Below, in pieces: positions 1-43,282 of a DNA stretch of 64,000 nucleotides. The notes beneath the pieces are model-generated. The model did not search any database, had not been told where the DNA came from, and saw nothing but the letters and a program-made list of their open reading frames with translations. Source of the DNA: Vitreimonas sp. (lineage in GTDB: Bacteria > Patescibacteriota > Microgenomatia > UBA1400 > PJMF01); NCBI GenBank assembly GCA_035627515.1, contig DASPLQ010000012.1:970331-1034330 (forward strand). Direction: 5' to 3'. The translations under genes and the position numbers were made by a program. How positions within the stretch are numbered: position 1 is the first letter of the stretch; each line of letters opens with the position of its first letter.

Positions 1-2
1 TT

Positions 3-284
3 GTGTTGGCAGTAGCAGCTTGGGCCACTATTAAACGCTCTCGGACGGGCTGGCTGATCTTAGCCGGTCTAGTTACAGCCTTGGTGATCGTGATTATTTG
101 GTTGTTCTTCTGTGATCTGTTACCTTGGCTCTACTACGCCTTGGGTATCACGTTGATTGCTTTGGGTGTACGCGAAATGTGGAAGCAAAATCGCGATCAG
201 CGTCCCCCACAAGTACCTGAACAGCCAGCCATTAATCCGGCTCCACGGCGCCGCCGCGTCAATTTGAGATTTTTCTCGTTGTAA
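3..284 (+). CDS. C-terminal fragment of a membrane protein; the 5' end lies outside the window. Two transmembrane helices are followed by a Pro/Arg-rich tail.
   Basis: Open frame from the window edge. Hydrophobic helices LILAGLVTALVIVIIWLFF and LGITLIALGV. Followed by a strong terminator. Confidence 0.35.
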   Translation: MLAVAAWATIKRSRTGWLILAGLVTALVIVIIWLFFCDLLPWLYYALGITLIALGVREMWKQNRDQRPPQVPEQPAINPAPRRRRVNLRFFSL

Positions 285-305
285 AAAATTAACTTTTAAT
301 TAAAA

Positions 306-337
306 CCCCCCACTATTTTTAGTGGGGGGTTGTTTTT
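306..337 (+). terminator. Rho-independent terminator
   Basis: 9-bp stem CCCCCCACT/AGTGGGGGG with loop ATTTTT, then TTGTTTTT. Confidence 0.7.
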
Positions 338-636
338 CCTCTGGAAATTGAAGTGTTGACATTCATGCTTTTTTCGTGTCATAACTATGCATGCTCGTAC
401 AAACTATCTGCCCAGATCGTTTTAGACAGCTCATGCATTTTGCACACATTACAATGTAGGTCAGCTCACTAACCTTTAATGGGGTGAGTTTTTTTATTAG
501 CAAAATGTCGCTAGCTAGACGACAACCACAGCCGCTTGTACAGTATAAAAAATAAAGACGCAATATTTACTTTTTACTTCGCTTTGTTCAGTATTAAGTA
601 TATAAACAATATATAGAAAGGAGGTGAAAAAAAATT

Positions 637-1506
637 ATGAAACGCATATTAAAAGCTTTAGTTGTAGTGGGTTTACTCTCAACTAGTGCAGGTATGGGCA
701 CTTACGCTCTCTTCACTAGTTCAGTTTCAGCCGCTAACAACGTTATCCAAACCGGTACTTTACGGTTAGCGATCGACTCTACCCGAGCTCATATCTTAGC
801 TCTCCCACACGTTTGGAACGGTGGTAATGGTGGTGTTGTCGCTCCTTATGACGCCTATACAATCGCTCAAGATGTCAACGGAGTTTCGACTCAATATGAC
901 ACCTTGGAAGCTTGGTTAGGTGCAGCTCCTGGCGCTTTCGATCCTTATATGAACGACGCTGGTGCTGACGCATTACAAGATGGAAACCACAGTTATTGGG
1001 TAGCTTTCCGTAACAACGGTACTATCTCAATGAAAGTTTCCAGTAATGTAACTGGTGGAACATGGACCATGGATCCTGGAGTTGCTGCAACACCAACCTG
1101 TTCAGCCTTCAATCCTAACGTCGCTGGTGTCGTCACTGTCCGTAACGTACATTTGTACGCTGCTGACAACTGTGAGGCCCACGAAGAGTGTGAGAACTTA
1201 TATTACGCTCTCGAGACCGGTCCTTGGAACTATGCTAACACTTACAGTGATGGATCAGCGTTAGCCGCTCCTGTGAACATTGGTAACGGCACTCCTGTGA
1301 CCGGTACTGTGTACGCAACTCAAAACGGTACAACTGCTACTCCAGCTGTTCAGTTAGATGCTTCAGAATACGTGATCGCTCGTATCGATGTTAACTTCGA
1401 TACAACCGGCGTCGTACCTGCTGCTCAAGAGAACTGTTATCAAGGTGCTACTTTCAACTACACGTTGAATGGTAATGCCTATCAAATGACCGACGGTACT
1501 TGGTAG
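637..1506 (+). CDS. Secreted TasA/camelysin-like (M73-family fold) protein with a SipW-cognate-type signal peptide
   Basis: Strong RBS AAAGGAGGTG 9 nt upstream. N-terminus ...GMGTYALFTSSVSAANNVIQTGTLRL parallels TasA GGGTWAAFND...ASGTLDL. Internal RNNGTISMK resembles TasA ENNGSLAIK. Confidence 0.65.
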   Translation: MKRILKALVVVGLLSTSAGMGTYALFTSSVSAANNVIQTGTLRLAIDSTRAHILALPHVWNGGNGGVVAPYDAYTIAQDVNGVSTQYDTLEAWLGAAPGAFDPYMNDAGADALQDGNHSYWVAFRNNGTISMKVSSNVTGGTWTMDPGVAATPTCSAFNPNVAGVVTVRNVHLYAADNCEAHEECENLYYALETGPWNYANTYSDGSALAAPVNIGNGTPVTGTVYATQNGTTATPAVQLDASEYVIARIDVNFDTTGVVPAAQENCYQGATFNYTLNGNAYQMTDGTW

Positions 1507-1548
1507 TTTATGACCATCCTTATCGCCTGAGCAATCGGGCGATAGGCT

Positions 1549-2208
1549 ATGAGCACAAACTCAACTATGAAATCAAAAAGAGCTCAACGAGTAGGATTAT
1601 TTTTCTCAGTTTTAGAGACGGTGGGAATTATTTTATTAGTTGCTTTAGCTGCAATTACTTTTGGGACGCGAATCCCTTTGTTAGCTAACTTAGGAATTAA
1701 CTTTTTTGCGGTGACGTCAGGTTCCATGGAACCAACCATCTCAACTGGCTCACTTATTTATGTGGGAAAGTTTTTACCTGAGGCTCTTAAAGAGGGTGAC
1801 ATCATTACCTATAAAAAGGTCAGTGGTGAAAATACTACCCCAACCGTAATAACTCATCGGATTATCAAGGTTAATAAGACAGAAGAAACCCAACAAACTA
1901 ATTCGGGTGAAAAGAAATTAGTTACGTATGAGTTCAAGACTAAAGGTGATGCTAATGGTCAAGAAGATGCCTATAATGTAGTTTTGGGTGAAATTATTGG
2001 CCTTTATAAATGGCACGTTCCTAGTCTAGGTTACTTAACTTCCTTTGCACAAACCCCCTTTGGATTTGCTACACTGGTAATTGTGCCCGCTGTGATTTTG
2101 GTTATGTGGGAAGTACTTTCATTGATGCTACACTTTAAGCAAGAATACGCATTAAAATCAGAAAGAGAGATCGCAAAACTGCGAGCTGAATTAGAAAACA
2201 AAAGTTAA
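1549..2208 (+). CDS. sipW: Signal peptidase I of the SipW (archaeal/ER-like S26) type
   Basis: Catalytic-serine motif AVTSGSMEPTISTGSLIYV. N-terminal and C-terminal transmembrane helices. Sits immediately after the TasA-like gene. Confidence 0.75.
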   Translation: MSTNSTMKSKRAQRVGLFFSVLETVGIILLVALAAITFGTRIPLLANLGINFFAVTSGSMEPTISTGSLIYVGKFLPEALKEGDIITYKKVSGENTTPTVITHRIIKVNKTEETQQTNSGEKKLVTYEFKTKGDANGQEDAYNVVLGEIIGLYKWHVPSLGYLTSFAQTPFGFATLVIVPAVILVMWEVLSLMLHFKQEYALKSEREIAKLRAELENKS

Positions 2209-2212
2209 AACC

Positions 2213-5200
2213 ATGTCCAAACGAATCACTTTTTTTACTAGCATCAAAATAATTTTACCTTTTATTGCTTTAATGCTGTCGGTAGTTGGTGTGACTTACC
2301 AGTTTAATGGTACTGGTGCTTTTGTTACTTCAGCTGTTCAAGCTGCCAGTAACCTTATTGGTCCTGGTCTTTTCCCAACCCCTTGTACCGAGGGTGAGAA
2401 ATGGTTAGATGAGGTGATTACAGGTCAAACGACCCAAGGACCGTTGAAGAATAACTCTCCAGTCACTGATCCGTTGCGAACTGATCCTACAAAATTGTTG
2501 GGCTCAACCGATAGTGCTTTTTACTCTCTAGGTAAAGCTGGGGTAGTGGTTGCTCGGTTCGAGAACTCGATTGAAGATGGCTCAGGTGATGACTTAGTCA
2601 TCAATGAAGTCACTTTTGGTGATCGTAACACCTATGCAGAAGAGACGGCTTTAGTAGAAGTAAGTCAAGATGGCACGACCTGGTTTGCACTTCCGGAAGC
2701 GGTGACCAGTAAAGCTACTGGTGGTGTGAATGGACTTGATATTTCCAGTACTGGTTTGTCATCAGTCTTATATATCCGTTTAACTGACACTACTAATTTT
2801 GGTCCTCACGACGCCAACGCTGATGGTATTGATATTGAATCAGTACAAGCTATCTACGGCCTCTGTGAAGTCTTACCAGTTGAGTCGGGCTCTATCTCTG
2901 GTGCTAAATACCAAGACAACAACACTAATGGCCAAAAAGATAATGGGGAGAGTGGTTTACAAGGATGGAGTATTTATGCTGGGGTTAAAGTGTGGGAAAG
3001 TGATGTCCAAGCTCAAGATACTCCAGCAGTTAACTCACCAAATCTTGATAACGGTGTTGCATATATTGCGCGAGTCACTGGGACGTACGATGCTGGTGAT
3101 GGTATTAATGCTGATGCTCTGTATTCCTATCGCACACCCACTTCTAGTTCCTGGACTGACGCAGTTAATAGCTACGAAGGTTATGGTCCTACTTTATTAG
3201 ACCTACAAATTGACGGTAGCTCAGTTAGCTGGGGTGATTACAACACTAATCATGTTTATTGGTTGCCATTAACTGGCGCTGGTACCACCAAATCTTTTGA
3301 AATTTATGACCTTAATAATGGTTCTAATAACGCGGGCAACCTCCATGTCGAGTTATTCCGCGTCATTGCTCAAGATATTACCGATGCTACTGGTAATTAC
3401 GATCTCGATTGGTCAGGTTATCCGACGGACACGATTTACCTATTCGAAGGTATGCAAAGTGGCTGGACACAAACCGAGCCCGGTGCAGCTAACTACTATC
3501 ATTCAGTTGCTGCTGATCAACGCGAAAACACCTTCAATTTTGGTAATCAACAAAGTAACGTCAGTGCACCGCAGATTTCCGATGTTACTGTCTGTAAAGT
3601 TGACCAAGCACAACAAGCCCTGAATGGCTGGAAGATGGTGCTTCATCAACCTTCAGTTTTAGAAACAGTGCGTGTTTACCCATCCGATGCCAATGGTGCC
3701 TTCGGCGGCTCAGTTAATCAAATAGTCGCCTCTAGTAACTTAAGTTTGGATGATTACGTCCTGATGGCAAATGGGATGTACACGTACCGCAGTGAGATGA
3801 ATGCGACTAGTAGTGATGCTACCTTCTCACAACGCGCTACTTATGATCCAGTCTATGGTGGTGCATATGCGCCTTGGGTTAACGTCACCACTTTCCCTAA
3901 TCCAAATACGGGTTGGTTAGGAGTGATGGTTAATGGCAGCAGTACCAACTGGGCTAATGCTTACAACCCTGACCATATTTACGCCTTAGGTTATGAAAAT
4001 TACAGTGGTCAATTTAACTTCACTATTCTTGATGACATTTATTCAGACAATAATGGTTACATCGATGTTGCTGTGTACAAAGGATGGGCTCAAGAGACAG
4101 CTAGTAACGGTTGTACGACTTTCCAAGATGTTCCTTATGGTAGTTACACTTTAGAAGAAATTGGTCAAAGTGGTTGGCAATACCAAAGTGGTGACCAAGG
4201 TACAGTCGTTGTCGATGGTGCTACCGAAACCTTTACTTTAGTCAATGCAGCCGTAAATACCAATACTGCTCCTGTTTCTAGCATGACTGTGACCAGTAGT
4301 CCTACAAAACAAATTGAGAATCGAATTTCTAATGGTGGCTTTGAATCAGGCTTGGATAACTGGACACATGTTGGTGATGTAGAAGTCATTAACAGTAGTG
4401 ATGTCAGTGCCGATCCTGCTGTCTTTGGTCAAAAACTGGTTCGCATTGGCCGGCCTACCAGCCCTGGCAACAGTGTGGATGTCAATATCTTGTCACAAGA
4501 TGTCAGCAATGCAGGTAATGGTTTGCGCTCTGTCGGCTTCTGGTACAACTTTAAGACCTTTGAATCAGGTGATGGCTTTGATGAGCCTGGCTTCATGGTT
4601 TTCGTAGGTGATCAGATGGTACACCAAGTATGGGCCAGTGATGTGCTAACAGACAGCAACAGTGCTACCCTCGATGAATCGGGTTGGCAATTCATCTCCA
4701 TTGACTTAACAGACTTGTCTGACTCGACTCTCAGCTTAGCCTTCTATGGTGGAAACTCTGGTGATCTTAGTTATCAGTCATATGTAGAAGTTGATAACGT
4801 CACCACTAATGAAGCCGCTGTAAATGCAGCTGCTGAGTTCACCCTGCAAGCTACCGATAACACTGCCGTCAGTGCCGTTCATTATCGCTACACAGTCGGT
4901 GGTTCGGAAACCCACGTTTCCACTGCCGGTGATACTGTTAACTTCTCCATTACGGCTCAGCCAGACAATGGCATTATCGAGTACTGGGCTGTTGATAGCG
5001 CCAGTATGGAAGAAAATCACAAGAGCTTCCACGTTATGTATGATAATGCAGCGCCCGCAGCTATTGCTAACCTAGATGTTACCGATGATAGTAATGGCGA
5101 CTTTACTTTGACCTGGGTAGCCCCCACAGATGCTAATCCGTATAACCTCGACAAAGCCGCTGAATATGATATCCGCTACGCTACTAATCAAGGGGACTTG

Positions 5201-6289
5201 ACCGCTGCTAACTGGGACAGCTTACCTCAAGCAACAATTAAAAACATCGATGGCTTGCCTGGTGGTGGTACTCGAGCACCTTTAATGTCAGGTAGTACCG
5301 AAGTGTACAGTGTTCACGTCAATGGTAGCTCCAGTGAGTATTGGTTTGCAGTTCGCTCACGAGATCGAGCTCGCAACCTTTCCGATCTCTCAGAGGTTAG
5401 TAGTTCTGGCACCACTAGTACACCAGTCTCAGTTCAAGCTGGCGATGTCATCATTAATGAAGTGATGTGGATGGGTAGCACTACTGGTCCAGCAGATGAG
5501 TGGATTGAGTTGCGCAATATGACTAGTGCTGACATTAACTTAACCAACTGGACAGTTGAAGGCTTAGGAACCGGTGGCGCTTTGACCATTACTTCAGGCA
5601 CCTTACCTGCTAATGGTTACTTCGTCATTGCTAACTCTGCAGCAGCTTCATCTGCCTTACTCAACGAACCTCACTTTGTGACCAGTACTGTTGAGTTAGC
5701 TAACACCGGTGAACAGCTAATTCTCAAAGACAGTAGTGCCGCACTTATCGATCAAACGCCGGCTGGTGTCTGGGCTGCAGGTAGTAATACTGCTCAGAAG
5801 CGATCGATGGAACGCAACAACACTCCTGGTGATGGCAGTGATGTCGCTAATTGGCACAGCTGTGATTCACAAAGCTGTACAGAAGCGCGCTCACTTTATT
5901 GGGACAGTGTAGGGGAGAACTATGGCACACCAAACGCCGCTAACTTATCTTTCACTGAAGCTGAGATAGTGCCTGAAGCTCACTTGACCCAACCTAACCC
6001 TGAGCACGTTTTATTAAGCCTCTCAGGTGTGCAGATCTACACCACTGCTGAATACACTATTGAGTATCAACACGAAGTAGATGGTCAACAGGTCAGTGAT
6101 GCTATTACTGATAAATTGGAGTTTCCATTAACGAGTCGTGATATTAAAACAGCAGAGTTGTTCTTAGGCACCTGTTCTAGCGATGAACAAAGCTGTGTTC
6201 CACACCAAAAAGTCACTTTACTTAAAGCCACAATTACTCTCAAGGCTGAGGGTGTGAGTGACAAAACATTAGCAGTAGAATTAGAATAA
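2213..6289 (+). CDS. Giant (1358 aa) secreted surface or adhesin protein. SipW-cognate-like N-terminus, CnaB/SdrD-B-type repeats, and a C-terminal lamin-tail domain.
   Basis: N-terminus ...VTYQFNGTGAFVTSAVQA. Motif SGAKYQDNNTNGQKDNGESGLQGW is SdrD-B/CnaB-like. LTD motif AGDVIINEVMWMGSTTGPADEWIELRNMTSADINLTNWTV. Confidence 0.6.
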   Translation: MSKRITFFTSIKIILPFIALMLSVVGVTYQFNGTGAFVTSAVQAASNLIGPGLFPTPCTEGEKWLDEVITGQTTQGPLKNNSPVTDPLRTDPTKLLGSTDSAFYSLGKAGVVVARFENSIEDGSGDDLVINEVTFGDRNTYAEETALVEVSQDGTTWFALPEAVTSKATGGVNGLDISSTGLSSVLYIRLTDTTNFGPHDANADGIDIESVQAIYGLCEVLPVESGSISGAKYQDNNTNGQKDNGESGLQGWSIYAGVKVWESDVQAQDTPAVNSPNLDNGVAYIARVTGTYDAGDGINADALYSYRTPTSSSWTDAVNSYEGYGPTLLDLQIDGSSVSWGDYNTNHVYWLPLTGAGTTKSFEIYDLNNGSNNAGNLHVELFRVIAQDITDATGNYDLDWSGYPTDTIYLFEGMQSGWTQTEPGAANYYHSVAADQRENTFNFGNQQSNVSAPQISDVTVCKVDQAQQALNGWKMVLHQPSVLETVRVYPSDANGAFGGSVNQIVASSNLSLDDYVLMANGMYTYRSEMNATSSDATFSQRATYDPVYGGAYAPWVNVTTFPNPNTGWLGVMVNGSSTNWANAYNPDHIYALGYENYSGQFNFTILDDIYSDNNGYIDVAVYKGWAQETASNGCTTFQDVPYGSYTLEEIGQSGWQYQSGDQGTVVVDGATETFTLVNAAVNTNTAPVSSMTVTSSPTKQIENRISNGGFESGLDNWTHVGDVEVINSSDVSADPAVFGQKLVRIGRPTSPGNSVDVNILSQDVSNAGNGLRSVGFWYNFKTFESGDGFDEPGFMVFVGDQMVHQVWASDVLTDSNSATLDESGWQFISIDLTDLSDSTLSLAFYGGNSGDLSYQSYVEVDNVTTNEAAVNAAAEFTLQATDNTAVSAVHYRYTVGGSETHVSTAGDTVNFSITAQPDNGIIEYWAVDSASMEENHKSFHVMYDNAAPAAIANLDVTDDSNGDFTLTWVAPTDANPYNLDKAAEYDIRYATNQGDLTAANWDSLPQATIKNIDGLPGGGTRAPLMSGSTEVYSVHVNGSSSEYWFAVRSRDRARNLSDLSEVSSSGTTSTPVSVQAGDVIINEVMWMGSTTGPADEWIELRNMTSADINLTNWTVEGLGTGGALTITSGTLPANGYFVIANSAAASSALLNEPHFVTSTVELANTGEQLILKDSSAALIDQTPAGVWAAGSNTAQKRSMERNNTPGDGSDVANWHSCDSQSCTEARSLYWDSVGENYGTPNAANLSFTEAEIVPEAHLTQPNPEHVLLSLSGVQIYTTAEYTIEYQHEVDGQQVSDAITDKLEFPLTSRDIKTAELFLGTCSSDEQSCVPHQKVTLLKATITLKAEGVSDKTLAVELE

Positions 6290-6306
6290 CGAAATACCTA
6301 TACGTC

Positions 6307-7671
6307 ATGAAAAAACTCATTGCTGCCTTATTTACCGCTGTTGGTTTGAGTTGGGCTGTAGCCGCTCCAGTTCAGGCTGGTACTAACTTAACTGTTACCT
6401 GTCCCGCTGTTGGCACGTGTAGCATTAGTCCCAGTGGCACACCACTTTTTGACGAAGCTGGTTGGATTCCAGGTTCCAGTGTCACACAGTATTTCCGGAT
6501 GTCTAACACTTCTTCACAAAACGGTTTTGCAGCAGTAGAAGTTGTTAACTACACCGAGACTAAAAACTTAGGTGCAGTGATTGATATTGAGATTCGTAAG
6601 AACTCGCCTTTAGGACCATTGGTGTATAACGGTGTTAGCCTCCATGATTTTAGAGATGATGGCTACTTTACGATCGATGGCATGAATGCCGGTCAAACCA
6701 CTGATTATTTTGTGATTGCTACCATGCGCACTACAGCTGGTAATGAGTACCAAGGTGCTATGGTCCGGTTTGATTTAAATATGGGCTTAGAAATCACCCC
6801 TATCCCACCTCAAAGCGGTGGTGGTGACGGTGCGGGTAACCCCGGTGGCGGTGGTGGTGGCACGTCTGCACCTGGACCAGCTTCACCCCCAGTTTGTACT
6901 GCTCAAGTTCCTTCAGCTGCTCCCAGTGTAACTATCTCTAATGTCGGCACTAATACAGTGACGCTCACTTGGACAGCTGTCAGTCCAGTTACTCATTATG
7001 GCTTATTCTTCACTCGTAACTCTGATGGCGCCCAATACGGTGCCCCCAATATTGGGAATGTGAACTCTTACACCATTACTAACTTGTCGGGTGGTGCTAA
7101 CTATACCTTCCAAGTCTTCGGTGTTAACGACTGTGCTCCTGGACCCCGATCTGGCAATGCTAGCTCCGGTGTGGTGCCAGGTCCGTTCATTGATGCCCGA
7201 CCAGTTGGTCCAGGTGGTCAAGTGCTCGGCGTCAGTACTGAAGCTTCGCCTTCACCTAGTCCCTCTCCTTCACCTTCACCCAGTGCTTCACCATTAGGTG
7301 AGGTGGCAGGCGCTGCCATAGAGGTTTGTTCACAATGGAAACTATATATTCCTTGGATCCTGCTTGTTATGCAGCTATTCTTCATCTTGGTTGCGGAGTA
7401 TTACTTCCGCCGCGATGAAGGTTGGACAAAGTACTTCATTATTGTAGGTGTCACACTAGCGTCCATTGCCATCTTCTATTGGCTCAGAGAGTGTAACTGT
7501 TTCGGACGCTGGTCATGGCTAGTCTGGTTATGTAAATGGTACTGGTTGGTGTCATTGATCTTGACCTTACTACTTCGCTTGTTCAGCTACGCCTTCCTCG
7601 AAGAAACAGAAGACGAGAGTGACAAGCCCAAGCCAGCTGTCAAAAAAGAAGTGGTTGAGATCAAAGAGTAA
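6307..7671 (+). CDS. Secreted protein with a TasA-like N-domain, an FN3-like domain, Gly-rich and (SP)n linkers, and an unusual Cys/Trp-rich three-helix C-terminal membrane anchor
   Basis: Signal peptide AVAAPVQA|GT. WIPGSSVTQYFRMSNTSSQNGFAAVEV is TasA-like. SPSPSPSPSPSPS linker. C-terminal helices contain CNCFGRWSWLVWLCKWYW. Confidence 0.5.
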   Translation: MKKLIAALFTAVGLSWAVAAPVQAGTNLTVTCPAVGTCSISPSGTPLFDEAGWIPGSSVTQYFRMSNTSSQNGFAAVEVVNYTETKNLGAVIDIEIRKNSPLGPLVYNGVSLHDFRDDGYFTIDGMNAGQTTDYFVIATMRTTAGNEYQGAMVRFDLNMGLEITPIPPQSGGGDGAGNPGGGGGGTSAPGPASPPVCTAQVPSAAPSVTISNVGTNTVTLTWTAVSPVTHYGLFFTRNSDGAQYGAPNIGNVNSYTITNLSGGANYTFQVFGVNDCAPGPRSGNASSGVVPGPFIDARPVGPGGQVLGVSTEASPSPSPSPSPSPSASPLGEVAGAAIEVCSQWKLYIPWILLVMQLFFILVAEYYFRRDEGWTKYFIIVGVTLASIAIFYWLRECNCFGRWSWLVWLCKWYWLVSLILTLLLRLFSYAFLEETEDESDKPKPAVKKEVVEIKE

Positions 7672-7707
7672 CTTGTCTAATTTCCTAAAACTCCGCATAA
7701 TGGGAGA

Positions 7708-8652
7708 GTGTCAAATCTGCTCAAAACGTTAGCGCACTTGTTTCATCCACGGCGATCCAATAACCACCGGGCGCGTGTGCTGCACCCCGAAGCATTAGCC
7801 TATCTGATTTTGATCGTGATTGGCTTTGGGGGTTTAATCCAAAGCGTTAGTTTTTTACCACTGGGGTGGGGTGATGTTTTAGGTTTTGCCTCTTCTATTA
7901 CTCCTAATCAAGTTATCGAACAGACCAATCAAGAACGCCAAAAAGTGGGTTTGCCTCCGCTGGTTTATAACGAACGTTTAGCCCAGGCAGCCCTTTCCAA
8001 AGGCCAAGATATGTTCTCTGAACAATACTGGGCCCATACCTCACCAGCCGGAAAGCAACCATGGGCGTTTATTAAAGACTCAGGATATACCTACCGAGCT
8101 GCTGGAGAAAATCTAGCGCGTGATTTTTCAAATACCGATGACATGGTCCGAGCTTGGATGGCGTCACCTACGCACCGGGCTAACATCGTCAATGCCAAGT
8201 ATCAAGAAATTGGGATTGCGGTCATTGATGGTGAGTTGCAAGGTTTTGAAACAACATTGGTAGTCCAGATGTTTGGAACCCCAATGGCTGGCGCACCACA
8301 GGTAGCACAGGCTGAGGAGCCCGTAGCCGTAGTCAATGAAGTAGTCCCAGTGGAAGAAACAGCACCTTTACCCGTTGCAACCGAAACCCAACCCAACACT
8401 CCCACGGTGCTAGCTCAAGCGTTAGTTCCCCAGGGTAGTCTTACGGTGCCACCCTTTTTCTCACCGCTGCACTTAACCAAAGCCTTTTTCTTAGCTGTGA
8501 TCTTGTTATTAATTTTTACTCTCATTTACGATGCATTCATTATCAGTCATCGCCAAACCTTACGCTTAGTGGGCAAGAACTTGGGTCATATCATCTTTTT
8601 GACCATCATTGGCTTTTTGGTGATTTTATTTAAGGGAGGCTTAGTAGGCTAA
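7708..8652 (+). CDS. CAP/SCP (PR-1-like, YkwD-type) domain protein with an N-terminal transmembrane helix and a C-terminal transmembrane helix. GTG start.
   Basis: NQERQKVGLPPLVYNERLAQAALSKGQDM...WAHTSPAG...NIVNAKYQEIGIAV is typical of the CAP superfamily. Confidence 0.6.
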   Translation: MSNLLKTLAHLFHPRRSNNHRARVLHPEALAYLILIVIGFGGLIQSVSFLPLGWGDVLGFASSITPNQVIEQTNQERQKVGLPPLVYNERLAQAALSKGQDMFSEQYWAHTSPAGKQPWAFIKDSGYTYRAAGENLARDFSNTDDMVRAWMASPTHRANIVNAKYQEIGIAVIDGELQGFETTLVVQMFGTPMAGAPQVAQAEEPVAVVNEVVPVEETAPLPVATETQPNTPTVLAQALVPQGSLTVPPFFSPLHLTKAFFLAVILLLIFTLIYDAFIISHRQTLRLVGKNLGHIIFLTIIGFLVILFKGGLVG

Positions 8653-8909
8653 TGAAAAATGAACTTCTCCGCCATCGCTTAGCTTACCTGATTTTAGTGA
8701 CAGGTTTAGGTGGGTTGACCTTGCTTTATTTGTCAGTGTGGCCAAATCTGGCATATCAACGACTTGTGATTTTAGCGTTATGTTTGTTTTATTTTGCATG
8801 GGGAGTAAGTACTCATTTGAAGACTGACCGTTACACCAACCGCGTTGCCTATGAATACTTGGGGATGTCTGCGCTGGGAGGAATGGTATTATTTCTTGTC
8901 ACCTTGTGA
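8652..8909 (+). CDS. Small membrane protein (3 transmembrane helices), hypothetical
   Basis: ATGA-type overlap with the upstream gene. Hydrophobic helices. Confidence 0.35.
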   Translation: MKNELLRHRLAYLILVTGLGGLTLLYLSVWPNLAYQRLVILALCLFYFAWGVSTHLKTDRYTNRVAYEYLGMSALGGMVLFLVTL

Positions 8910-8946
8910 CATATCTATGATAGACTAACCCACAGGAAAGGACTCT

Positions 8947-9666
8947 ATGAAAGGTATTATTTTAGCTGGTGGCTCTGGGACGCGTTTGCGACCTCTCACC
9001 AAAGTCACTAGTAAACAGTTACTGCCCATTTACAACAAGCCCATGATTTTTTATCCGTTGGAAACGTTGTTGACGGCCGGTATCAAGGATATCTTAATCA
9101 TAGTGGCTCCAGATCATGCCGGTGACTTTTTGAAGTTACTAGGTAGTGGCAAAGAATTCGGCTGCAAATTCACCTATGAAATTCAAGATAAACCTGAAGG
9201 TTTAGCTCAGGCTTTTATTATTGGTGAAAATTTTATTGGTAATGATTCCGTGACCCTCATTTTAGGGGATAATGTTTTCGAAGATAATTTTTCTGAGGCA
9301 ATTACTGGTTTCCAACGCGGTGGCCGTATTTTTGCTAAGAAAGTCAGTGACCCAGAGCGGTTTGGTGTGGTGGAGTTTGATGAAAATACCAAGGCTATTT
9401 CTATTGAAGAAAAACCAGCTCAACCCAAATCAAATTACGCAGTCACTGGTTTGTATATTTATGACAATACTGTGGTTCAAAAAGCTCGTAATCTTCAGCC
9501 TTCCCCTCGTGGTGAGTTAGAAATTACTGATCTGAACAATGTCTATCTTCGGGAGGGTTCGTTAGATGTCGCTTTTGTAGAAGGTAAATGGTTAGACACT
9601 GGGACCTTTGAATCATTATTTGAAGCCATTGCCTTTGCGCGCGAAAAAGAACTCGTAAAAGCTTAA
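8947..9666 (+). CDS. Sugar-phosphate nucleotidyltransferase, RmlA-like (glucose-1-phosphate thymidylyltransferase family), short form
   Basis: [53 protein letters not shown] is a near-consensus RmlA N-terminus. At 239 aa it is shorter than canonical RmlA. Confidence 0.65.
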
Positions 9667-9678
9667 CAGTAACCAAGC

Positions 9679-10605
9679 ATGTCAATAAGTGGTCGAGCCC
9701 TTATTATCATTTTTTTGCTGGGAACCTTAGTGGTGCTGCCTTCTGTAGCTGTCGTTGAAGCGCAATCTTTGTTTCAGCCCCCACAATCAAGTGTAGCTCC
9801 AGCTGAGATTGAAGAAACGCCTCCGCCAATTGAAACTACTGAAGAACTCCCCAGTGATGGGGTGATTGGGGAACGACAGGAATATAAAGCTCAACTGACT
9901 GAGTTAAATGGTACCTATCGGACCCAACTAGAGAAATACCGCAACTTAGAACGTCAATTTGACGTCACTAAAGGTCAGTGGCAAAAAGTGGGCTCATTGG
10001 GTTCATTAGAGGCAGCGGTGAAAGCTACCAAAGAAGTGATGATCGCTCGGTCAGAAGTCTTGACCACGTATTTGACGTTACTTCGCTTGGAAGTCTTACA
10101 AACCACTGGTATTAATGTCATTCAGAAAGAAGCGCTCCTTTCCGATCTGGATGGAGTAATGGTGGTGCTAGCTGCTCATCAAGAGAAACTCCAAAACATT
10201 GCTAGTCGCAATGAAGTAAATGCTCAAGTGGCCGAGTTTGTGTCAGTTAAAAAAGAAGTGGAGCGCGTTAGTTACACAGCCTTGACGCTATTGGAAGTGG
10301 GACGGTTGCAAGCAGTTTACGACAAGCTCAATGATTTGACTGGTGACATCCGGGAAAACACTCAGGCCAACAGTGATGAAAACAATGCCTTAGTAATTGC
10401 TCAACAACAGCGCGCACTGGATGAAATCCAAACCAAACTTGATGAAGTCCACACCGAGTTACAAGAAATTACGGCTTTTACTGATAAGAGCTCTGATCGG
10501 GAGAGTAAATCTGTTAACGATACTGTCAGTCGCGATTTAAATAAAGTGTATACCGGCCTTTCCCAAGCGGTGGGATTTTTGCGTGAGTTTTTAGGAGTCA
10601 ATTAA
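9679..10605 (+). CDS. Secreted coiled-coil protein, hypothetical
   Basis: Signal peptide followed by heptad-rich sequence with many E/K/Q/L residues. Confidence 0.4.
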   Translation: MSISGRALIIIFLLGTLVVLPSVAVVEAQSLFQPPQSSVAPAEIEETPPPIETTEELPSDGVIGERQEYKAQLTELNGTYRTQLEKYRNLERQFDVTKGQWQKVGSLGSLEAAVKATKEVMIARSEVLTTYLTLLRLEVLQTTGINVIQKEALLSDLDGVMVVLAAHQEKLQNIASRNEVNAQVAEFVSVKKEVERVSYTALTLLEVGRLQAVYDKLNDLTGDIRENTQANSDENNALVIAQQQRALDEIQTKLDEVHTELQEITAFTDKSSDRESKSVNDTVSRDLNKVYTGLSQAVGFLREFLGVN

Positions 10606-11006
10606 TGGCTAATTCAGAACTATCAGAACGACTAGATCAAACTAATTTTGGCTATGAAAAGCCGATTTTTGAAAATGAGCCTCGGATTGTTGATCCTCAC
10701 GCCGTGGTGGCTCCACCCGCGCCCCCTCAGCCTTGGTACAAGCGCCCTTTGGTTTTGGTAGGCATTGCCGGAGGCAGCTTGCTATTTCTCATTCTCATTT
10801 TAATACTCGTTTACATGCCCAAACCTCAATTACCAATCAACTCCATCACGCCTTTTCAACCCACTCAAACTGACACTCAACCGAGTGAGTTTGAGACGCG
10901 CTTAGACCAGGCTAGTCAAGATTTAGAAGCTGCAGATCCCACTCGTCCCACCTTACCTTTCCCTGTGGTCAATCTTGATTTACAATTAGAGAATGTTACA
11001 GAGTAG
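10605..11006 (+). CDS. Single-pass membrane protein, hypothetical
   Basis: ATGA overlap. One transmembrane helix LVLVGIAGGSLLFLILILILVY. Pro-rich. Confidence 0.35.
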   Translation: MANSELSERLDQTNFGYEKPIFENEPRIVDPHAVVAPPAPPQPWYKRPLVLVGIAGGSLLFLILILILVYMPKPQLPINSITPFQPTQTDTQPSEFETRLDQASQDLEAADPTRPTLPFPVVNLDLQLENVTE

Positions 11007-11412
11007 TTTATGCATTGCCTTGGGGCTGATTTCAATCCTGGTGTTTGTAGTGGCCCTCACTAAAAGTAGACGGGGTCAATTTTATTCAGACACGCCGGCT
11101 TTATTTCCGTTGGGTATTTTTGTGTGGGGTGATGCCTTGGCTTTGGCACCTTTTTGGTTGGTAGCAGCGATCATTTTTTGGTGGCTGGAACCAGTGATGA
11201 TTGCACGTTTATTATGTGTCTTTTTTGCCATTCGAGCAGCATATGAAGTCGTGTATTGGATTAATCACCAGGTGGCACATCGTGATTACTGCCCACCCAT
11301 GTTTCGGCAGGTAAAATGGCTCGGTGCTAACGAAGCCGCCATTTTATATCAACTCATGAACATGCTCCAAGTGATTGTAGCCTTGGGTTTGATGATCATG
11401 ACGTATAATTAA
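10993..11412 (+). CDS. Multi-pass membrane protein, hypothetical
   Basis: Four hydrophobic helices. Overlaps the upstream gene. Confidence 0.35.
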   Translation: MLQSSLCIALGLISILVFVVALTKSRRGQFYSDTPALFPLGIFVWGDALALAPFWLVAAIIFWWLEPVMIARLLCVFFAIRAAYEVVYWINHQVAHRDYCPPMFRQVKWLGANEAAILYQLMNMLQVIVALGLMIMTYN

Positions 11413-11417
11413 TAACT

Positions 11418-12740
11418 ATGATAATGACTGACCAAGAGCGATTTGAAAGAGACAGATATACTGGCCAGGGAAGTTTTAGTTTAAGACAGCCAATAACTAA
11501 TCAGGTCGCAGAAATTTTCAAGGGTAAACCGAGTGAGTTAACTGAGCCCGAAAAACCTTCAACAAACGAAGCTGTTAATGCCTTGGCTGCGGCTATTGTC
11601 CAATTACCGCCTGAAGCACGCTTGAAAGCCCTTGAGGATGCTATTAGTGATTTAAAAAAACAAGTCGAAACTTCATTAATACAAGAAACGAAACCAGATG
11701 TTATTGAAGCCAAGCCAGTGGCATATCTCACTAAAGAAGTAGAACAAATTGTACCAGTCACTTTCAAACTTTATTTCTATGGTAAAACCATATACACGCA
11801 GCATAGAGCTGTTCATGATTGGGGTTCTATTCCCAAGAGCGACACAGTACAAAGTGCATATAGAAGATTAAGTGAGATGTATTTCCCTTTTAATAAAAGT
11901 GATCCTCAAGATGTAAATTTACTACGACAATGGACAGAAAAAGCCGGCAGATTACCATTAATTGGTGTGTTAAGAAATGACGCTAATATTGAAATTGGTA
12001 AGTGGTTTATGAGTCGTGATGCAGATAAAGAGGATTTAAAAAAGTTTTCGGGTGATTTGGAAACCGTGCCCTTTTTAGAGTTAATTGATCGGGCTACAAA
12101 TCCTGAGACGCACCTATTTATAATAAATAACAAAGTCATCGTCATTACTACTTTTACGTATTTAGAAGGATTGGGACATCCCGATGAAAGAAGAGTCACT
12201 TCCTCCTTTATTGTTCGAGAGTCTAGTTTAGAAGATGCTAAGAATTCACTCGAAAAAAATGGCTGTTTTATTGCGTTGCCAACCAATGGTCCTTTCATCC
12301 CTTCAGACAACTTTCAAACGGGGCAACTATCTGGTTCTAATCAAGTCACGATTTGTCCTCGACCTGAGCAGTTATTTAAACGACCGAAACCAGCCACTAA
12401 TATGAGGGTTTTATCGGGATGGTTGTCAAATCAAGAAAATAATAAACAGGCTTGTATGTTACAAGGATCTGAGGCCTTATCAAGTTTAGAGCAACGCATG
12501 ATGATCGATGAACTATTACGTGAATTACTGCTATCCCAAAATCCCATTAAAAGTGACCTCTTTATTTCATCACGTCAGACTGGGCAACTCATAACTTTGA
12601 AAAGAATTGTTAGCGCTACTAGCGGTGAACAAATTGACTTAAATGAACTAAAAAGTATTCACCTCCAAACACCCTCTTTTGCCGGGAAGCGTGAGGATGA
12701 TCTCAAATCCGAGGCTTACTCTGCCTCGTTCAACGTTTAG
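11418..12740 (+). CDS. Hypothetical 440-aa soluble protein; AT-rich, with no recognisable family
   Basis: Long ORF whose composition differs from its neighbours. Its 3' end overlaps the convergent downstream gene by 11 nt. Confidence 0.4.
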   Translation: MIMTDQERFERDRYTGQGSFSLRQPITNQVAEIFKGKPSELTEPEKPSTNEAVNALAAAIVQLPPEARLKALEDAISDLKKQVETSLIQETKPDVIEAKPVAYLTKEVEQIVPVTFKLYFYGKTIYTQHRAVHDWGSIPKSDTVQSAYRRLSEMYFPFNKSDPQDVNLLRQWTEKAGRLPLIGVLRNDANIEIGKWFMSRDADKEDLKKFSGDLETVPFLELIDRATNPETHLFIINNKVIVITTFTYLEGLGHPDERRVTSSFIVRESSLEDAKNSLEKNGCFIALPTNGPFIPSDNFQTGQLSGSNQVTICPRPEQLFKRPKPATNMRVLSGWLSNQENNKQACMLQGSEALSSLEQRMMIDELLRELLLSQNPIKSDLFISSRQTGQLITLKRIVSATSGEQIDLNELKSIHLQTPSFAGKREDDLKSEAYSASFNV

Positions 12741-24850: not shown

Positions 24851-26725
24851 ATGTCTGATCAGACACGAACCTTTATAAGCGCTAGTCCCTCTAGTGTGGG
24901 CCAGGAAATTTTGCTTCAAGGCTGGGTAGATACCAAACGCGATCACGGTAAAGTCACGTTTATAGATTTGCGTGATCACACCGGGGTGGTCCAGTGTGTG
25001 GGTTACAAGATGATGGGTGAAGTCACCACCGAGTCAGTGGTGGAGCTGGTGGGTTTAGTCAAAGAACGCCCTGCCAACATGGTCAATGACAAAATTGTCA
25101 CCGGAGGAATCGAGATAGAGGTTAAATCTTATACCGTGCTCAACAAAGCTAAAGAACTGCCAATTACTCTTGATAGTGATGGCAAAGATATTGGTGAAGA
25201 AGCGCGTTTAAAGTATCGTTACCTTGACTTACGACGGCCTCGAATGCAACAGATTGTAAAATTGCGGTCGGATTACTTCCGAGCCTTGCGTACTGCTCTC
25301 TATGAACGAGAGTTCACTGAAGTCGAAACGCCGATGCTGACCAAATCTACCAAAGAGGGTGCCCGAGACTTCATCGTACCATCACGGTTTCAACCTGGTA
25401 AATTTTATGCGCTACCACAAAGTCCGCAGCAATATAAACAGTTGTTAATGACTGCTGGCGTATATCGCTACTTTCAGTTTGCACGCTGCATCCGCGACGA
25501 GGACTTGCGCGCTGATCGCGGGTTTGAGTTCACGCAACTGGATGTAGAGCTGAGTTTTGCTAAACAAGATGAGGTGATGCAGACAATTGAGGATGTAGTC
25601 AAGCAAGCTGTTAAAACGGTAGGTGGGAAATTGAAAGATGAAACCTTCCCGGTGGTGGATTATGCAGATGCTATCAAAAAATATGGAGCTGATCGTTTCG
25701 ATTTGCGGACCGAAGCTGAGAAACAAGATGGGACCTTAGCTTTTGCATGGGTAGTGAACTTTCCGTTCTTCAAAAAAGTCGATAAAGGTGACATTGCTGA
25801 AGTGCGTGATGGCAAGAGTGGCTGGACTTTCACCCATAATCCTTTCAGTGCGCCGTTACCGGAGCACGAGGAGTGGTTATTAAAGGGCGAAAACGTGGGC
25901 GAGATCTTAACTACGCAGTACGACTTGGTTTGTAATGGGTATGAAGTAGGTGGCGGCAGTATCAGAGCTCACAAGCCAGAGTTATTAAAAGCCACGTTTA
26001 AAGTCATGGGATATGGTGATCAGGAAATTGAGGACAGCGTGGGACACATGTTAGAAGCGTTTAGTGTGGGTACACCACCTCATGGTGGGTTGGCACTAGG
26101 CTTAGATCGCTTAATCATGTTGTTAGCGGGGGAAACCTCACTCAAAGAAACGATTGCTTTTCCAATGAGCTCTACTGGTCGCACCGCGGTCATGGACGCC
26201 CCCAGCCCTGTCGCCGAAGAACAACTTCAGGAGTTAGGTTTGAGCATTCGAGCTCCTCAGGGTCAACAGACGCCCCACGACTTTATTTTAGATCTCCTCA
26301 AGAAACACCACGTGGAGTATCAGTATCTAGAACATGAACCAGTCACTACTAGCCAAGAGGCTGCTCGGGTTCGAGGTGGTAAGGAACAAGAAGGTGCCAA
26401 GGCATTGGTGATGCAAGCTGATAAAGAGTTTGTGCTGTATGTCCTGCCTGGTGATCAGCGCGCCGATTTAGCTGCCTTCCAAAAGCACCTGGGTGTGAAG
26501 AAGTTAGCGATGGCGTCTACTGATTCTGTCTATCAACGCACCGGTTTGAAAGTAGGCTCCATTCCGCCCTTTGGGTCTTCGATCAAAATGAAAACCTATG
26601 TCGATAGCCGACTGGCTGCCAACGAACAGATTGCCTTCAACGTTGGCCGGCATGATCGATCGGTGATCATGAAGTATGCCGACTATGTAGCGGTGGAAAA
26701 ACCAGAAGTAGTGAATATTGGCTAA
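24851..26725 (+). CDS. aspS: Aspartyl-tRNA synthetase, bacterial type but lacking the GAD insertion, fused to a C-terminal YbaK/ProX-like aminoacyl-tRNA deacylase domain
   Basis: RBS AGGAG. N-terminal OB domain. Motif 2 FYALPQSPQQYKQLLM...FARCIRDEDLRADR. Motif 3 GGGSIRAHK...GLALGLDRLIMLL. Bacterial C-terminus ETIAFPMSSTGRTAVMDAPSPV. An extra ~155 aa: EHEPVTTSQEAARVRG...ALVMQADKEFVLYVLPGDQRADL...GLKVGSIPPFG. Confidence 0.85.
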   Translation: MSDQTRTFISASPSSVGQEILLQGWVDTKRDHGKVTFIDLRDHTGVVQCVGYKMMGEVTTESVVELVGLVKERPANMVNDKIVTGGIEIEVKSYTVLNKAKELPITLDSDGKDIGEEARLKYRYLDLRRPRMQQIVKLRSDYFRALRTALYEREFTEVETPMLTKSTKEGARDFIVPSRFQPGKFYALPQSPQQYKQLLMTAGVYRYFQFARCIRDEDLRADRGFEFTQLDVELSFAKQDEVMQTIEDVVKQAVKTVGGKLKDETFPVVDYADAIKKYGADRFDLRTEAEKQDGTLAFAWVVNFPFFKKVDKGDIAEVRDGKSGWTFTHNPFSAPLPEHEEWLLKGENVGEILTTQYDLVCNGYEVGGGSIRAHKPELLKATFKVMGYGDQEIEDSVGHMLEAFSVGTPPHGGLALGLDRLIMLLAGETSLKETIAFPMSSTGRTAVMDAPSPVAEEQLQELGLSIRAPQGQQTPHDFILDLLKKHHVEYQYLEHEPVTTSQEAARVRGGKEQEGAKALVMQADKEFVLYVLPGDQRADLAAFQKHLGVKKLAMASTDSVYQRTGLKVGSIPPFGSSIKMKTYVDSRLAANEQIAFNVGRHDRSVIMKYADYVAVEKPEVVNIG

Positions 26726-41581: not shown

Positions 41582-43282
41582 ATGTCAAAGCGTGCATGGT
41601 GGATTAGCATTATTTTTATTCTGTGCCTCAGTCTTAGCATCCGTTTTTATCACTTAGGGCAAGTTCCCGTGGGACTGTATTGGGATGAGATAGCGATGTT
41701 GACCGATGCTAAATCGGTTGCCGAGTCCGGTCTCGATATGCATGGCAGGCCCTGGTTTCAAGTGTTATATCCCTCCTATGGTGATTACAAATTGCCGGTT
41801 TATATTTGGTTAGCCAGTCTGATGGTAAAGATATTTGGCATTAGTGAATGGGCACTGCGCCTACCCAGTGCTGTCGCCGGGGTAGCCACGGTAGCACTCG
41901 GTGGTCTCTTGATGCATGAAATCTGGAAATGGTCAGCACACTCTAAACAGACACGTTCGTATGCACCGCTATTTGCCATGCTGATTACGGCTTTAGCGCC
42001 CTGGGCCATTATGTTTTCTCGTACGGGCTTTGAAGGTCATCTGGGACAAGCCCTGTTAGGGTTATCTATCTGGGTAGCTATGAAAGCTACCACAGCTAAA
42101 CAACCCTGGTGGTGGTTACTCGGCTCAGCAGTCCTTGGGGCATTAGCTACCTACACCTACTTTTCAGTGCGTTTTGTCTGGCCGGTAGTAGTGATAGCCA
42201 CTCAACTGTTGGGTAATGAGCATTTATTTACGAAACGGTCAGTTAAAGTTTTATTATCACTAGTGGCAAAAGTGTTCCTTCCGTTACTGGTTTTTGCCGT
42301 GTTGCTATGGCCGATGCTGCGCTCACCTTTATATGCCGATAGCAATCGCTTTCGTTTAGGCACGGATTCGGTTTTAAAAACCGATACCACAATTCACACT
42401 GGCAATTTCTATAAAGAATTAAGTGGCAATAGTATTGTTGATCGACTACTTTTTCATCGGGGAGTATTTATTCTTCAGGCCTTAGCTGATAACTATAGTG
42501 ATAACGTCAGTGATAGCTTTAAATTTATTGTCGGTGACCCTAATTTACGACATGGAACCGGAGAACATGGTCTGTTTTATGGAGTGTGGCTGTTGTTTTT
42601 TGTGGTGGGGTGTTACGCTCTCGCTCGTGATAACAAACGAGGTTTATTGTTGTTGATCGGATGGTGGGTGATAGCTTTGCTTCCGGCTTCAGTTCCAGAA
42701 AACACCCCGCATGCTTTACGGTCGCTCAACGCTTTACTGCCCTTAGTGATTATTTTAGGCAGTGGGGCGATGGAGAGTTGGCAAGGTTTATTAAAGTTTA
42801 AAGTATTAAGTTCAAAATTTAATGATGTAGTCTTAACGTCTCTTTTTGTGCTGTTGTTTTTTGTGGTGCCGAGCGCGTCCTTTTTAGCTCATTACTTCAC
42901 GCAGTACCCCCAAGATTCTGCCACAGCCTGGCAAGATCAGTATAAAGAATTAGCTGTTAAGTTATTTGAGATCAAACGTGATCGTCCGGTGTACGTGTTG
43001 AAATTTGATGATCGGTTTTATTTATGGCTGATGGCCTATGGTCCTTACACAGCACGAGATTTTCATACGTGGAAAAGTGACAATTATCAATTCCGAGAAC
43101 TCGACACTTTTTATTTTGATGTCTATCCGACTATGAGGAGTGAGACACGCTTAGTAGTAGGTGAGGTGGGAAGAATGAGCGAGCTCGAAGAAAAATCAAA
43201 TTTAGTGCTCAAACGCGAAGCGGTGATTTATGATCATGAGGGTCAGCCAAAGTTTATCATTGCTAGTGTTGAGGGATCATGA
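41582..43282 (+). CDS. GT-C membrane glycosyltransferase, ArnT/PMT-like; paralog
   Basis: DE motif GLYWDEIAMLTDA. Polytopic with a C-terminal soluble domain. Confidence 0.6.
   Translation: MSKRAWWISIIFILCLSLSIRFYHLGQVPVGLYWDEIAMLTDAKSVAESGLDMHGRPWFQVLYPSYGDYKLPVYIWLASLMVKIFGISEWALRLPSAVAGVATVALGGLLMHEIWKWSAHSKQTRSYAPLFAMLITALAPWAIMFSRTGFEGHLGQALLGLSIWVAMKATTAKQPWWWLLGSAVLGALATYTYFSVRFVWPVVVIATQLLGNEHLFTKRSVKVLLSLVAKVFLPLLVFAVLLWPMLRSPLYADSNRFRLGTDSVLKTDTTIHTGNFYKELSGNSIVDRLLFHRGVFILQALADNYSDNVSDSFKFIVGDPNLRHGTGEHGLFYGVWLLFFVVGCYALARDNKRGLLLLIGWWVIALLPASVPENTPHALRSLNALLPLVIILGSGAMESWQGLLKFKVLSSKFNDVVLTSLFVLLFFVVPSASFLAHYFTQYPQDSATAWQDQYKELAVKLFEIKRDRPVYVLKFDDRFYLWLMAYGPYTARDFHTWKSDNYQFRELDTFYFDVYPTMRSETRLVVGEVGRMSELEEKSNLVLKREAVIYDHEGQPKFIIASVEGS

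Follow-up and report, generated by a model that had tools for sequence, protein, structure and literature searches.

The four-gene block and its signal peptidase

The sequence analysed here, referred to as the window, is a stretch of 64,000 nucleotides (nt) from contig DASPLQ010000012.1 of assembly GCA_035627515.1, deposited as Vitreimonas sp. (positions 970,331 to 1,034,330 of the forward strand; coordinates below count from its first letter). Near its start, a six-frame listing of open reading frames (ORFs) confirmed four co-directional genes on the + strand, which an earlier note on this DNA had likened to the tapA-sipW-tasA operon for Bacillus biofilm fibres. P1 (637-1506, +) encodes a divergent TasA/camelysin-like secreted protein of 289 amino acids (aa), P2 (1549-2208, +) an archaeal/endoplasmic reticulum (ER)-type, or SipW-type, signal peptidase I of 219 aa, P3 (2213-6289, +) a secreted, modular adhesin-like protein of 1358 aa, and P4 (6307-7671, +) a protein of 454 aa with a signal peptide, a TasA-like domain, a fibronectin type III (fn3) domain, a linker and three transmembrane helices. 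The spacers between P1 and P2, P2 and P3, and P3 and P4 measure 42, 4 and 17 nt, and nothing supports the other ORFs listed within the last two genes, all of them short and either out of frame or antisense. All of the strings quoted in the earlier note were found, namely GTYALFTSS...TGTLRL at P1 residues 21-44, SGSMEPT at P2 residues 57-63 and GTGAFVTSAVQA at P3 residues 33-44.

The identification of P2 as a SipW-type peptidase carrying SGSMEPT was confirmed by a TIGR02228 score of 100.5 bits against a cut-off of 51.85. When searched against the PDB with phmmer, P2 matched human SEC11C and SEC11A (7p2q/7p2p; E 1.9e-7 and 3.7e-5), with SGSMEP aligned to SGSMEP, THRI to VHRV and TKGDANGQED to TKGDNNAVDD. 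The catalytic residues S59 (SGSMEP), H103 (THR) and D134 (KGDAN) align with those of SEC11A/C, and the catalytically dead SEC11A chain 9rjb (S to A) reads SGAMEP, which marks the nucleophile; the loss of catalytic residues that had been named beforehand as an argument against a fibre operon was not found. By model score and motifs, P2 belongs to the ER/archaeal-type S26 signal peptidases (MEROPS S26B), with Ser/His(/Asp) rather than Ser/Lys at its active site. Hydropathy places one transmembrane helix near each end, at residues 18-36 (N-terminal) and 176-194 (C-terminal). Against the Bacillus SipW equivalog model NF046067, P2 scored 98.6 bits and did not reach the cut-off of 190, so that it shares the enzyme type of SipW without matching it at orthologue level.

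TasA-like domains of P1 and P4

TasA polymerises as its N-terminal strand (28-38), exposed by SipW, completes the jelly-roll of the next subunit (PMC9674648). Residues 1-39 of P1 (637-753, +) comprise a SipW-type signal peptide and a donor-strand-like segment, LFTSSVSAANNVIQT, which lies upstream of GTLRL. The assignment of this region to the SipW-cognate signal class was upheld by the NCBIfam model TIGR04088 (cognate_SipW; cut-off 19 bits), which scored 20.4 bits with full-length P1 and 24.4 bits with residues 1-70. Cleavage is predicted after A24 (GTYA/LFTSS, the slash marking the cut) from alignment to GTWA/AFND of TasA, whose mature N-terminus, A28, was confirmed against PDB 8aur.

The earlier note had held that its reading would suffer if P1 or P4 lacked a significant hit to TasA/camelysin models, and taken literally that direct match failed: P1 scored 14.5 bits (E 0.033) against Pfam PF12389 (Peptidase_M73; gathering score 22.5 bits), over residues 10-49 only, i.e. 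the signal region, and P4 gave none. The relationship was found at the level of profiles. A word-index search returned just 14 close homologues of P1 (32-57% identity), in the alignment of which A24, F26, S28, A32, N35, I37, G40-T41-L42 and D47 form an invariant N-terminal block; nowhere else is P1 as strongly conserved as in this region, which is homologous to the TasA donor strand. Also invariant are four cysteines (155, 179, 185 and 267), and the family shares a C-terminal motif, NC[YF]QGAT[FY], which in P1 itself reads NCYQGATF..L.G.A.Q. Searched against 1.84 billion representatives, the P1-family profile gave 419 matches at E<=1e-3, including 31 at E<=1e-30; many of the weaker matches are proteins of 180-230 aa aligned at both the N-terminus and the C-terminal motif, and PF12389 proteins are reached via N- and C-terminal stretches alike.

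For profile–profile comparison, a set was formed of 31 profile matches that also match B. subtilis TasA by phmmer (the TasA query being identical to PDB 8aur over residues 28-261), and every one of these 31 proteins matches PF12389. The P1 family aligned to this set at 99.9% (E 3.7e-31) over 201 columns (residues 2-282), and at 98.0% (E 1.5e-13) once the signal and donor regions had been removed, with controls (a reversed template profile and shuffled TasA) giving E 0.08-0.75. In pairwise searches, phmmer of P1 against the PDB returned nothing relevant, and the sole BLASTP match of P1 to P4 or P3 covered the N-terminal 42 residues with P3 (E 0.13).

Given the Pfam family name, P1 might also be read as a secreted enzyme (the camelysin metalloprotease, Peptidase_M73) or, given the Joint Genome Institute (JGI) label 'ribosomally synthesized peptide with SipW-like signal peptide' on its homologues, as an antimicrobial, in either case within a neighbourhood kept by common descent only. 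We regard this as very improbable. Neither HExxH nor any other conserved metal-site motif occurs in P1, conservation is lacking for the His in its CEAHEEC, and the peptidase attribution of CalY is viewed as a likely misidentification (PMC11580942); the camelysin-protease reading was rejected for lack of a conserved metal-binding motif. The reading as a ribosomally synthesized peptide was likewise rejected, P1 being a folded domain of ~265 residues and not a peptide.

P4 begins with an ordinary signal peptide with an AxA-like site (..APVQA/GTNLTV), followed by a TasA-like jelly-roll domain (residues ~25-165; 6379-6801, +) with a Cys32/Cys38 hairpin, a PGSSVTQ..N strand and AGNEYQG..FDL. The fn3 domain (residues 207-282; 6925-7152, +; 39.3 bits, with PDB fn3 matches) is the sole Pfam domain detected, and it is followed by a Ser/Pro-rich linker, three transmembrane helices predicted by hydropathy (346-364, 375-393 and 405-431; 7342-7599, +) and a charged cytoplasmic tail. 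From this architecture it follows that P4 is membrane-anchored and exposes its TasA-like domain. In 51 family members, the membrane region (residues 341-431; 7327-7599) carries nearly invariant cysteines at C341, C396/C398 and C409, with the consensus RxCxC...WLC.WYW.

The TasA-like nature of the P4 N-domain, as first suggested from the letters of the sequence, was substantiated by both profile and fold. Compared with the 31 PF12389 proteins, the P4 family scored 98.5% (E 2.7e-15, residues 46-163), a result independent of how the set was selected, and 97.9% with the body only; the bodies of P4 and P1 compared with each other gave only 25% probability, over the common NxYQG motif. An AlphaFold2 model of P4 residues 1-180 was confident (pLDDT 91), and in Foldseek the top TM-scores belonged to the TasA monomer (5of2/5of1; 0.55/0.50, prob 1.00), while AbpA (7ueg) ranked 5th and the Sulfolobus thread subunit (7pnb) 15th; no hit reached E<=1e-3. 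The P4 family, which exceeds that of P1 in size, comprises at least 83 clusters at E<=1e-3; its named hosts are Patescibacteria, Pacebacteria or Microgenomates, and its named members are annotated merely as 'fn3 domain' or 'hypothetical'. The family alignment shows a mature N-terminus of consensus AGTDLTVxC....GxC, in which C32 and C38 are nearly invariant, together with the conserved motifs PG...TQ...N and AGNEYQG....FDL, the latter being the C-terminal motif of TasA/camelysin. On the profile evidence, the mature domains of P1 and P4 are homologous to bona fide PF12389 members. The fold is the TasA-type jelly-roll, and P1 and the P4 N-domain lie within the TasA/camelysin superfamily at profile and fold level, below the Pfam family threshold.

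In sequence, P1 has an invariant counterpart of the donor strand, whereas P4 has none. The P4 N-terminus had no match to TIGR04088 at E<=10, and a hidden Markov model (HMM) of P1-family residues 1-48 left P4-type proteins unmatched. These results bear on the polarity of any fibre, as P4 could alternatively donate its own N-terminal strand (GTNLTVTC) and serve as a membrane-bound nucleator, with P3 as a separate SipW substrate that nucleates separate fibres or stays outside the fibre. The mature N-terminus of P4 does open with a conserved beta-strand (AGTDLTVxC), which one hhalign run aligned positionally to the TasA donor strand, and TapA has been reported to co-localise with the membrane (PMC10151520). 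However, the P4 profile comparison aligns only from residue 46 on, the P1-type N-terminal HMM misses the P4 type, and the conserved pair Cys32-Cys38 hints at a hairpin that is stapled and unable to extend, all of which make this polarity quite improbable.

Conservation of the module and its variable third gene

A phyletic check found the order TasA-like protein, peptidase, large cognate protein and P4-type protein kept in nine other Patescibacteria loci (L001-L009). L001 is a JGI metagenome locus, in which P1 is 56% identical, while L002-L006 come from GTDB species representatives that either bear the title Candidatus Paceibacterota (a name given today as a synonym of the phylum Minisyncoccota) or are mislabelled third-party annotation (TPA) assemblies. 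In L007, a copper ATPase and yggT/mscL flank the module, and because it stands there amid unrelated genes, the four genes travel as a unit.

The guess that the host belongs to the small-genome candidate phyla radiation (CPR) was supported by the names of the related metagenome-assembled genomes (Patescibacteria/Paceibacterota/Microgenomates). The NCBI label 'Vitreimonas sp.', an alphaproteobacterium, is probably wrong: the sources of the relatives, where named, are Patescibacteria, Paceibacterota or Microgenomates, barring two other mislabelled TPA assemblies. A Patescibacteria genome, rather than Vitreimonas, is indicated by the relatives, by the low GC content (0.40-0.47 in the window) and by the compact setting of housekeeping genes. 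In the NCBI annotation of the 1.41-Mb contig, P1 and P2 are named 'SipW-dependent-type signal peptide-containing protein' (HYD35406.1) and 'signal peptidase I' (HYD35407.1), and P3 is a 'lamin tail domain-containing protein' (HYD35408.1).

The description of P3 as a large adhesin-like protein with a lamin-tail domain (LTD) stands, with Pfam scores of 54-61 bits for LTD (residues 1075-1181; 5435-5755, +) and 24-30 bits for a SpaA prealbumin-like fold domain (residues 617-677; 4061-4243, +). Segment-wise Pfam scans of P3 revealed nothing beyond these two and weak fn3-like signals, and no sequence relatives were found in the PDB. The protein has one N-terminal hydrophobic segment, and neither a C-terminal anchor nor LPXTG. 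Residues 1-51 (2213-2365, +) hold the signal peptide and a P1-like motif, NGTGA/FVTSAVQAASNLIGPG, with a putative cleavage site after A36 (GTGA/FV) judged from sequence likeness; no GTLxL strand or TasA-like domain follows this motif, and in an hhalign comparison of residues 1-260 with the TasA family only residues 1-52 aligned (E 0.01).

The claimed similarity between the N-termini of P3 and P1 is real and consistent across loci, but it is weak and finds no match in TIGR04088. When the N-terminal HMM was run on all ORFs (478) from the window together with L001-L006, seven P1-type proteins ranked first and were followed by seven large post-peptidase genes, one per locus, each matched at its own N-terminus. 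In six of the seven loci the match was the gene directly after the peptidase; in L006 it was a 442-aa ORF at 8085-9413, the gene immediately after the peptidase (4650-6671) being unmatched. P3 was the best non-P1 match (residues 21-51), and the motif common to the P1 and P3 types is T-x-A-[FYLW]-[FV]-[TS]-S-x-[VL]-x-[AV]-x-[NS]-N-x-[IV]. Among P3-type N-termini, the nearest to TIGR04088 was that of the L002 protein (18.1 against 19 bits).

The bodies of the third-gene proteins vary widely across loci in length and module content, from 532 aa in L002 through 676 (L003), 805 (L004) and 813 (L005) to 1174 aa in L001, with L006 combining a 673-aa third gene with the 442-aa ORF. Compared with the TasA family, the third genes of L008 and L009 carry a full TasA-like N-domain (95-96%) and that of L003 part of one (91%), and in L001, as in P3, the match is confined to the first ~40-50 residues (E 0.01). 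The TasA-like N-domain is fused to adhesin modules in L003 (1805-3835), L008 (695-2257) and L009 (7069-10008). This series suggests a stepwise loss of the acceptor domain. Pfam showed no sequence homology between P3 and TapA; the two proteins are not homologues, and P3 has the defining N-terminal logic of TapA only weakly.

The conservation of the N-terminal segment also bears on whether these proteins polymerise at all. They could instead be envelope proteins that form no donor-strand fibre, with P1 as a secreted or wall-associated beta-sandwich protein (coat, S-layer-like or binding), P4 as a membrane-anchored surface receptor, P3 as a free or loose adhesin, and P2 as a dedicated peptidase for an unusual signal class. 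Against this reading, conservation in P1 is strongest in the donor-homologous region, from A24 to G40-T41-L42. In addition, this segment is disordered in the monomer model of P1 (AlphaFold2 pLDDT <50 across residues 1-40), which is what pairing of a strand in trans would lead one to expect, and the P3-type proteins keep it even where the TasA-like domain has gone, which is hard to explain unless it is functional. The characterised members of the superfamily (TasA, CalY, BsaA and AbpA) are all fibre subunits (PMC9674648, PMC9245690, PMC11580942), and non-polymerising proteins are accordingly considered unlikely.

Upstream of the block, a 93-aa membrane ORF stops at 284 and is closed by an intrinsic-terminator-like hairpin at 304-331 (+; 12-bp stem with seven G-C pairs, T-rich tail), which is the upstream limit of the four-gene block. 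A Shine-Dalgarno sequence, AAGGAGGTGA (618-627, +), lies 9 nt ahead of the P1 ATG at the end of a 350-nt spacer, and its strength would fit a highly translated structural subunit. A promoter scan gave sites no more numerous than in shuffles. Downstream of P4 follow genes for a CAP/YkwD-domain membrane protein with N- and C-terminal transmembrane helices (7708-8652, +), an 85-aa two-helix membrane protein (8652-8909, +) and an NTP_transferase (8947-9666, +), and since the + strand run goes on with small gaps, the end of the operon is unreadable from spacing.

The same three genes follow the module in L001-L004, L006, L008 and L009, and not in L007. This downstream synteny, kept in most loci, would favour a neighbourhood maintained by common descent only, yet in L007 the module moves as a unit and CAP and NTP_transferase stay behind. 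The three genes were rejected as core parts of the module on the same ground, and they are probably a conserved neighbourhood and not part of the fibre system. Sortase genes occur near the module in L007 (13277-13795) and L008 (8025-8615), in the latter directly after a 1493-aa LTD/fn3 protein, the second LTD protein of that locus; neither a sortase nor an LPXTG motif was seen in positions 1-12000 of the window. Further along the window, 24851-26725 (+) encodes a tRNA synthetase of the class II aspartyl/lysyl/asparaginyl type (PF00152 plus the anticodon-binding OB fold PF01336) whose C-terminal residues 495-613 form a YbaK-like tRNA_edit domain (PF04073), so that it looks like a synthetase/trans-editing fusion. 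At 41582-44913 (+) lie two adjoining ORFs of ~550 aa, the first of which (the sole one scanned) matches PMT_2, a dolichyl-phosphate-mannose protein mannosyltransferase-like family, and may have a role in surface-protein glycosylation.

A proposed fibre and its relation to known systems

The homologies, catalytic residues, domain architecture and conserved gene order were observed directly. The four genes probably specify an extracellular fibre or pilus of TasA type, dependent on SipW, in a bacterium of the Patescibacteria (CPR). Most elements of the tapA-sipW-tasA-like operon first proposed for this DNA held when tested, and that proposal is supported as a whole, with fibre formation being what we infer from known relatives. 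By homology with those systems, P1, P3 and probably P4 would be exported by Sec, and P2 would cut P1 after A24 (GTYA/LF) and P3 after A36 (GTGA/FV), each cut leaving a free N-terminal beta-strand segment. The strand of one P1 would then enter the jelly-roll of the next by donor-strand exchange and build a linear polymer, as in TasA, BsaA and AbpA.

TapA, the N-terminus of which resembles the TasA donor strand and is predicted to complement TasA (PMC9674648), donates its N-terminus, cannot accept one and can thus only start a filament (PMC10151520). P3 would similarly be a donor-only tip or nucleator; since it has a donor-like N-terminus and neither an acceptor domain nor an anchor, it could sit only at the chain start, where its ~1300-residue SpaA/LTD/beta-rich body would be displayed as a distal adhesin. 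P4 is the candidate base, because it has the acceptor fold, lacks a donor segment of the P1 type and is held in the membrane by three helices, and as terminal acceptor it may take the last free donor strand and tie the fibre to the cell. This topology of P1 shaft, P3 tip and P4 base is put forward tentatively. It is conceivable, if on the doubtful side, that CPR bacteria more generally build a three-part donor-strand-exchange pilus from a P4-family base, a P1 shaft and interchangeable giant P3-type tip adhesins, the tips being held only by a short SipW-exposed donor strand and their bodies differing from locus to locus. If true, this would be a type of pilus undescribed in any organism, and it would let episymbiotic or ultra-small cells attach to hosts or surfaces by an organelle that does not depend on type IV pili.

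Several observations weigh against the proposed fibre. P1 and P4 both miss PF12389 directly, and a single Bacillus TasA was not significantly matched by the P1 or P4 profile (hhalign, E 0.01-0.1), though the right motifs were aligned, for P1 the C-terminal one; the homology of P1 to TasA therefore runs through intermediate sequences. P1 also has ~90 residues of insertions and four conserved cysteines, both without a TasA counterpart. The N-terminal match of P3 is weak (E 1e-4 among 478 ORFs) and its N-terminus had no TIGR04088 match at E<=10, the P4-type gene is absent from L002, and co-transcription of the four genes is not demonstrated by their arrangement, as long co-directional runs are normal in these genomes. 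Finally, the N-terminal strand of P4 is modelled confidently in cis, stapled by the conserved Cys32/Cys38, so that the groove may be permanently self-complemented and unable to accept a strand. Whether the modelled groove behind this hairpin can open would be the main uncertainty of the model.

The significance of the module lies in what it may say about assembly. Among the donor-strand-exchange polymers of monoderm bacteria and archaea, only TasA-type fibres are well understood, the initiation, termination and cell attachment of such fibres are unclear even in Bacillus, and the surface appendages and attachment mechanisms of CPR bacteria are largely unknown. The module amounts to a natural dissection of these functions into a donor-only giant adhesin, a donor-plus-acceptor subunit and a membrane-anchored protein with the acceptor fold only. 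The setting outside Bacillus, stressed in the earlier note, is less new than it was taken to be, since PF12389 in Patescibacteria has been mentioned in one line (PMC9245690) and sipW-tasA-like operons are described in C. perfringens (PMC11580942). The value of the finding is also limited because Bacillus and Clostridium already show the logic, P1 and P2 carry correct names at NCBI and the occurrence of PF12389 in Patescibacteria is published. The novelty lies in the architecture of P4, in a giant third gene that varies, and in the conservation of the four-gene module among CPR bacteria. The searchable literature yielded no account of this module (TasA with CPR; TIGR04088/PF12389) or of the P4 family as TasA-like.

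Among known systems, the module resembles the tapA-sipW-tasA operon of B. subtilis (TasA fibre 8aur) in that a dedicated ER/archaeal-type signal peptidase gene adjoins those of its substrates, a jelly-roll subunit follows the pattern signal-A/xF..(donor)..GTLxL...PG..N.G...N.YQG..F...A.Q, and a second substrate (TapA; here, tentatively, P3) mimics the donor strand on a body that is no TasA acceptor. It differs in host and in gene order (tasA-like, sipW-like, tapA-like and a fourth gene). P1 is related to TasA at the profile level only, in keeping with its failure against PF12389, its extra residues and its cysteines; P3 has five times the size of TapA and no sequence relationship to it; and P4, with its TasA-like domain, fn3 and three-helix anchor, has no Bacillus counterpart.

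The sipW-bsaA-bsaB-bsaC operon of C. perfringens likewise consists of four genes outside Bacillus, encoding SipW, two TasA-like proteins and a large accessory secreted protein. One of the two TasA-like proteins forms the polymer, BsaA, which is SipW-dependent and membrane-associated as oligomers, and is locked by an Asn-Lys isopeptide bond (N35-K74 between subunits, catalysed by E56; PMC11580942). P1 keeps the Asn (N35 is invariant), but no Lys is conserved in the P1 family or the P4 domain, and a lock of the BsaA type was rejected as unlikely, given that no invariant or nearly invariant Lys occurs in mature P1 or the P4 domain. BsaC is a vWA protein and not an LTD/SpaA protein like P3, and no membrane-anchored TasA-like protein is described for the bsa operon. 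A sortase gene lies near it (PMC11580942), as near the L007 and L008 modules.

In the sipW-calY1-bc1280-calY2 locus of B. cereus, SipW is similarly accompanied by two TasA-like paralogues with differing proposed roles (PMC4292775, PMC10151520). Unlike P4, the two CalY proteins are small, secreted camelysins whose signals are of the SipW type and which have neither membrane anchor nor fn3, and the locus has no giant adhesin. In archaea, AbpA, the TasA-like donor-strand pilin of Pyrobaculum calidifontis (7ueg), is followed by a much larger beta-rich secreted protein, AbpB, proposed to be both assembly initiator and adhesin (PMC9245690). The ABP locus differs from the present module in lacking a dedicated signal peptidase, and the sequences of the two are related at the fold level only.

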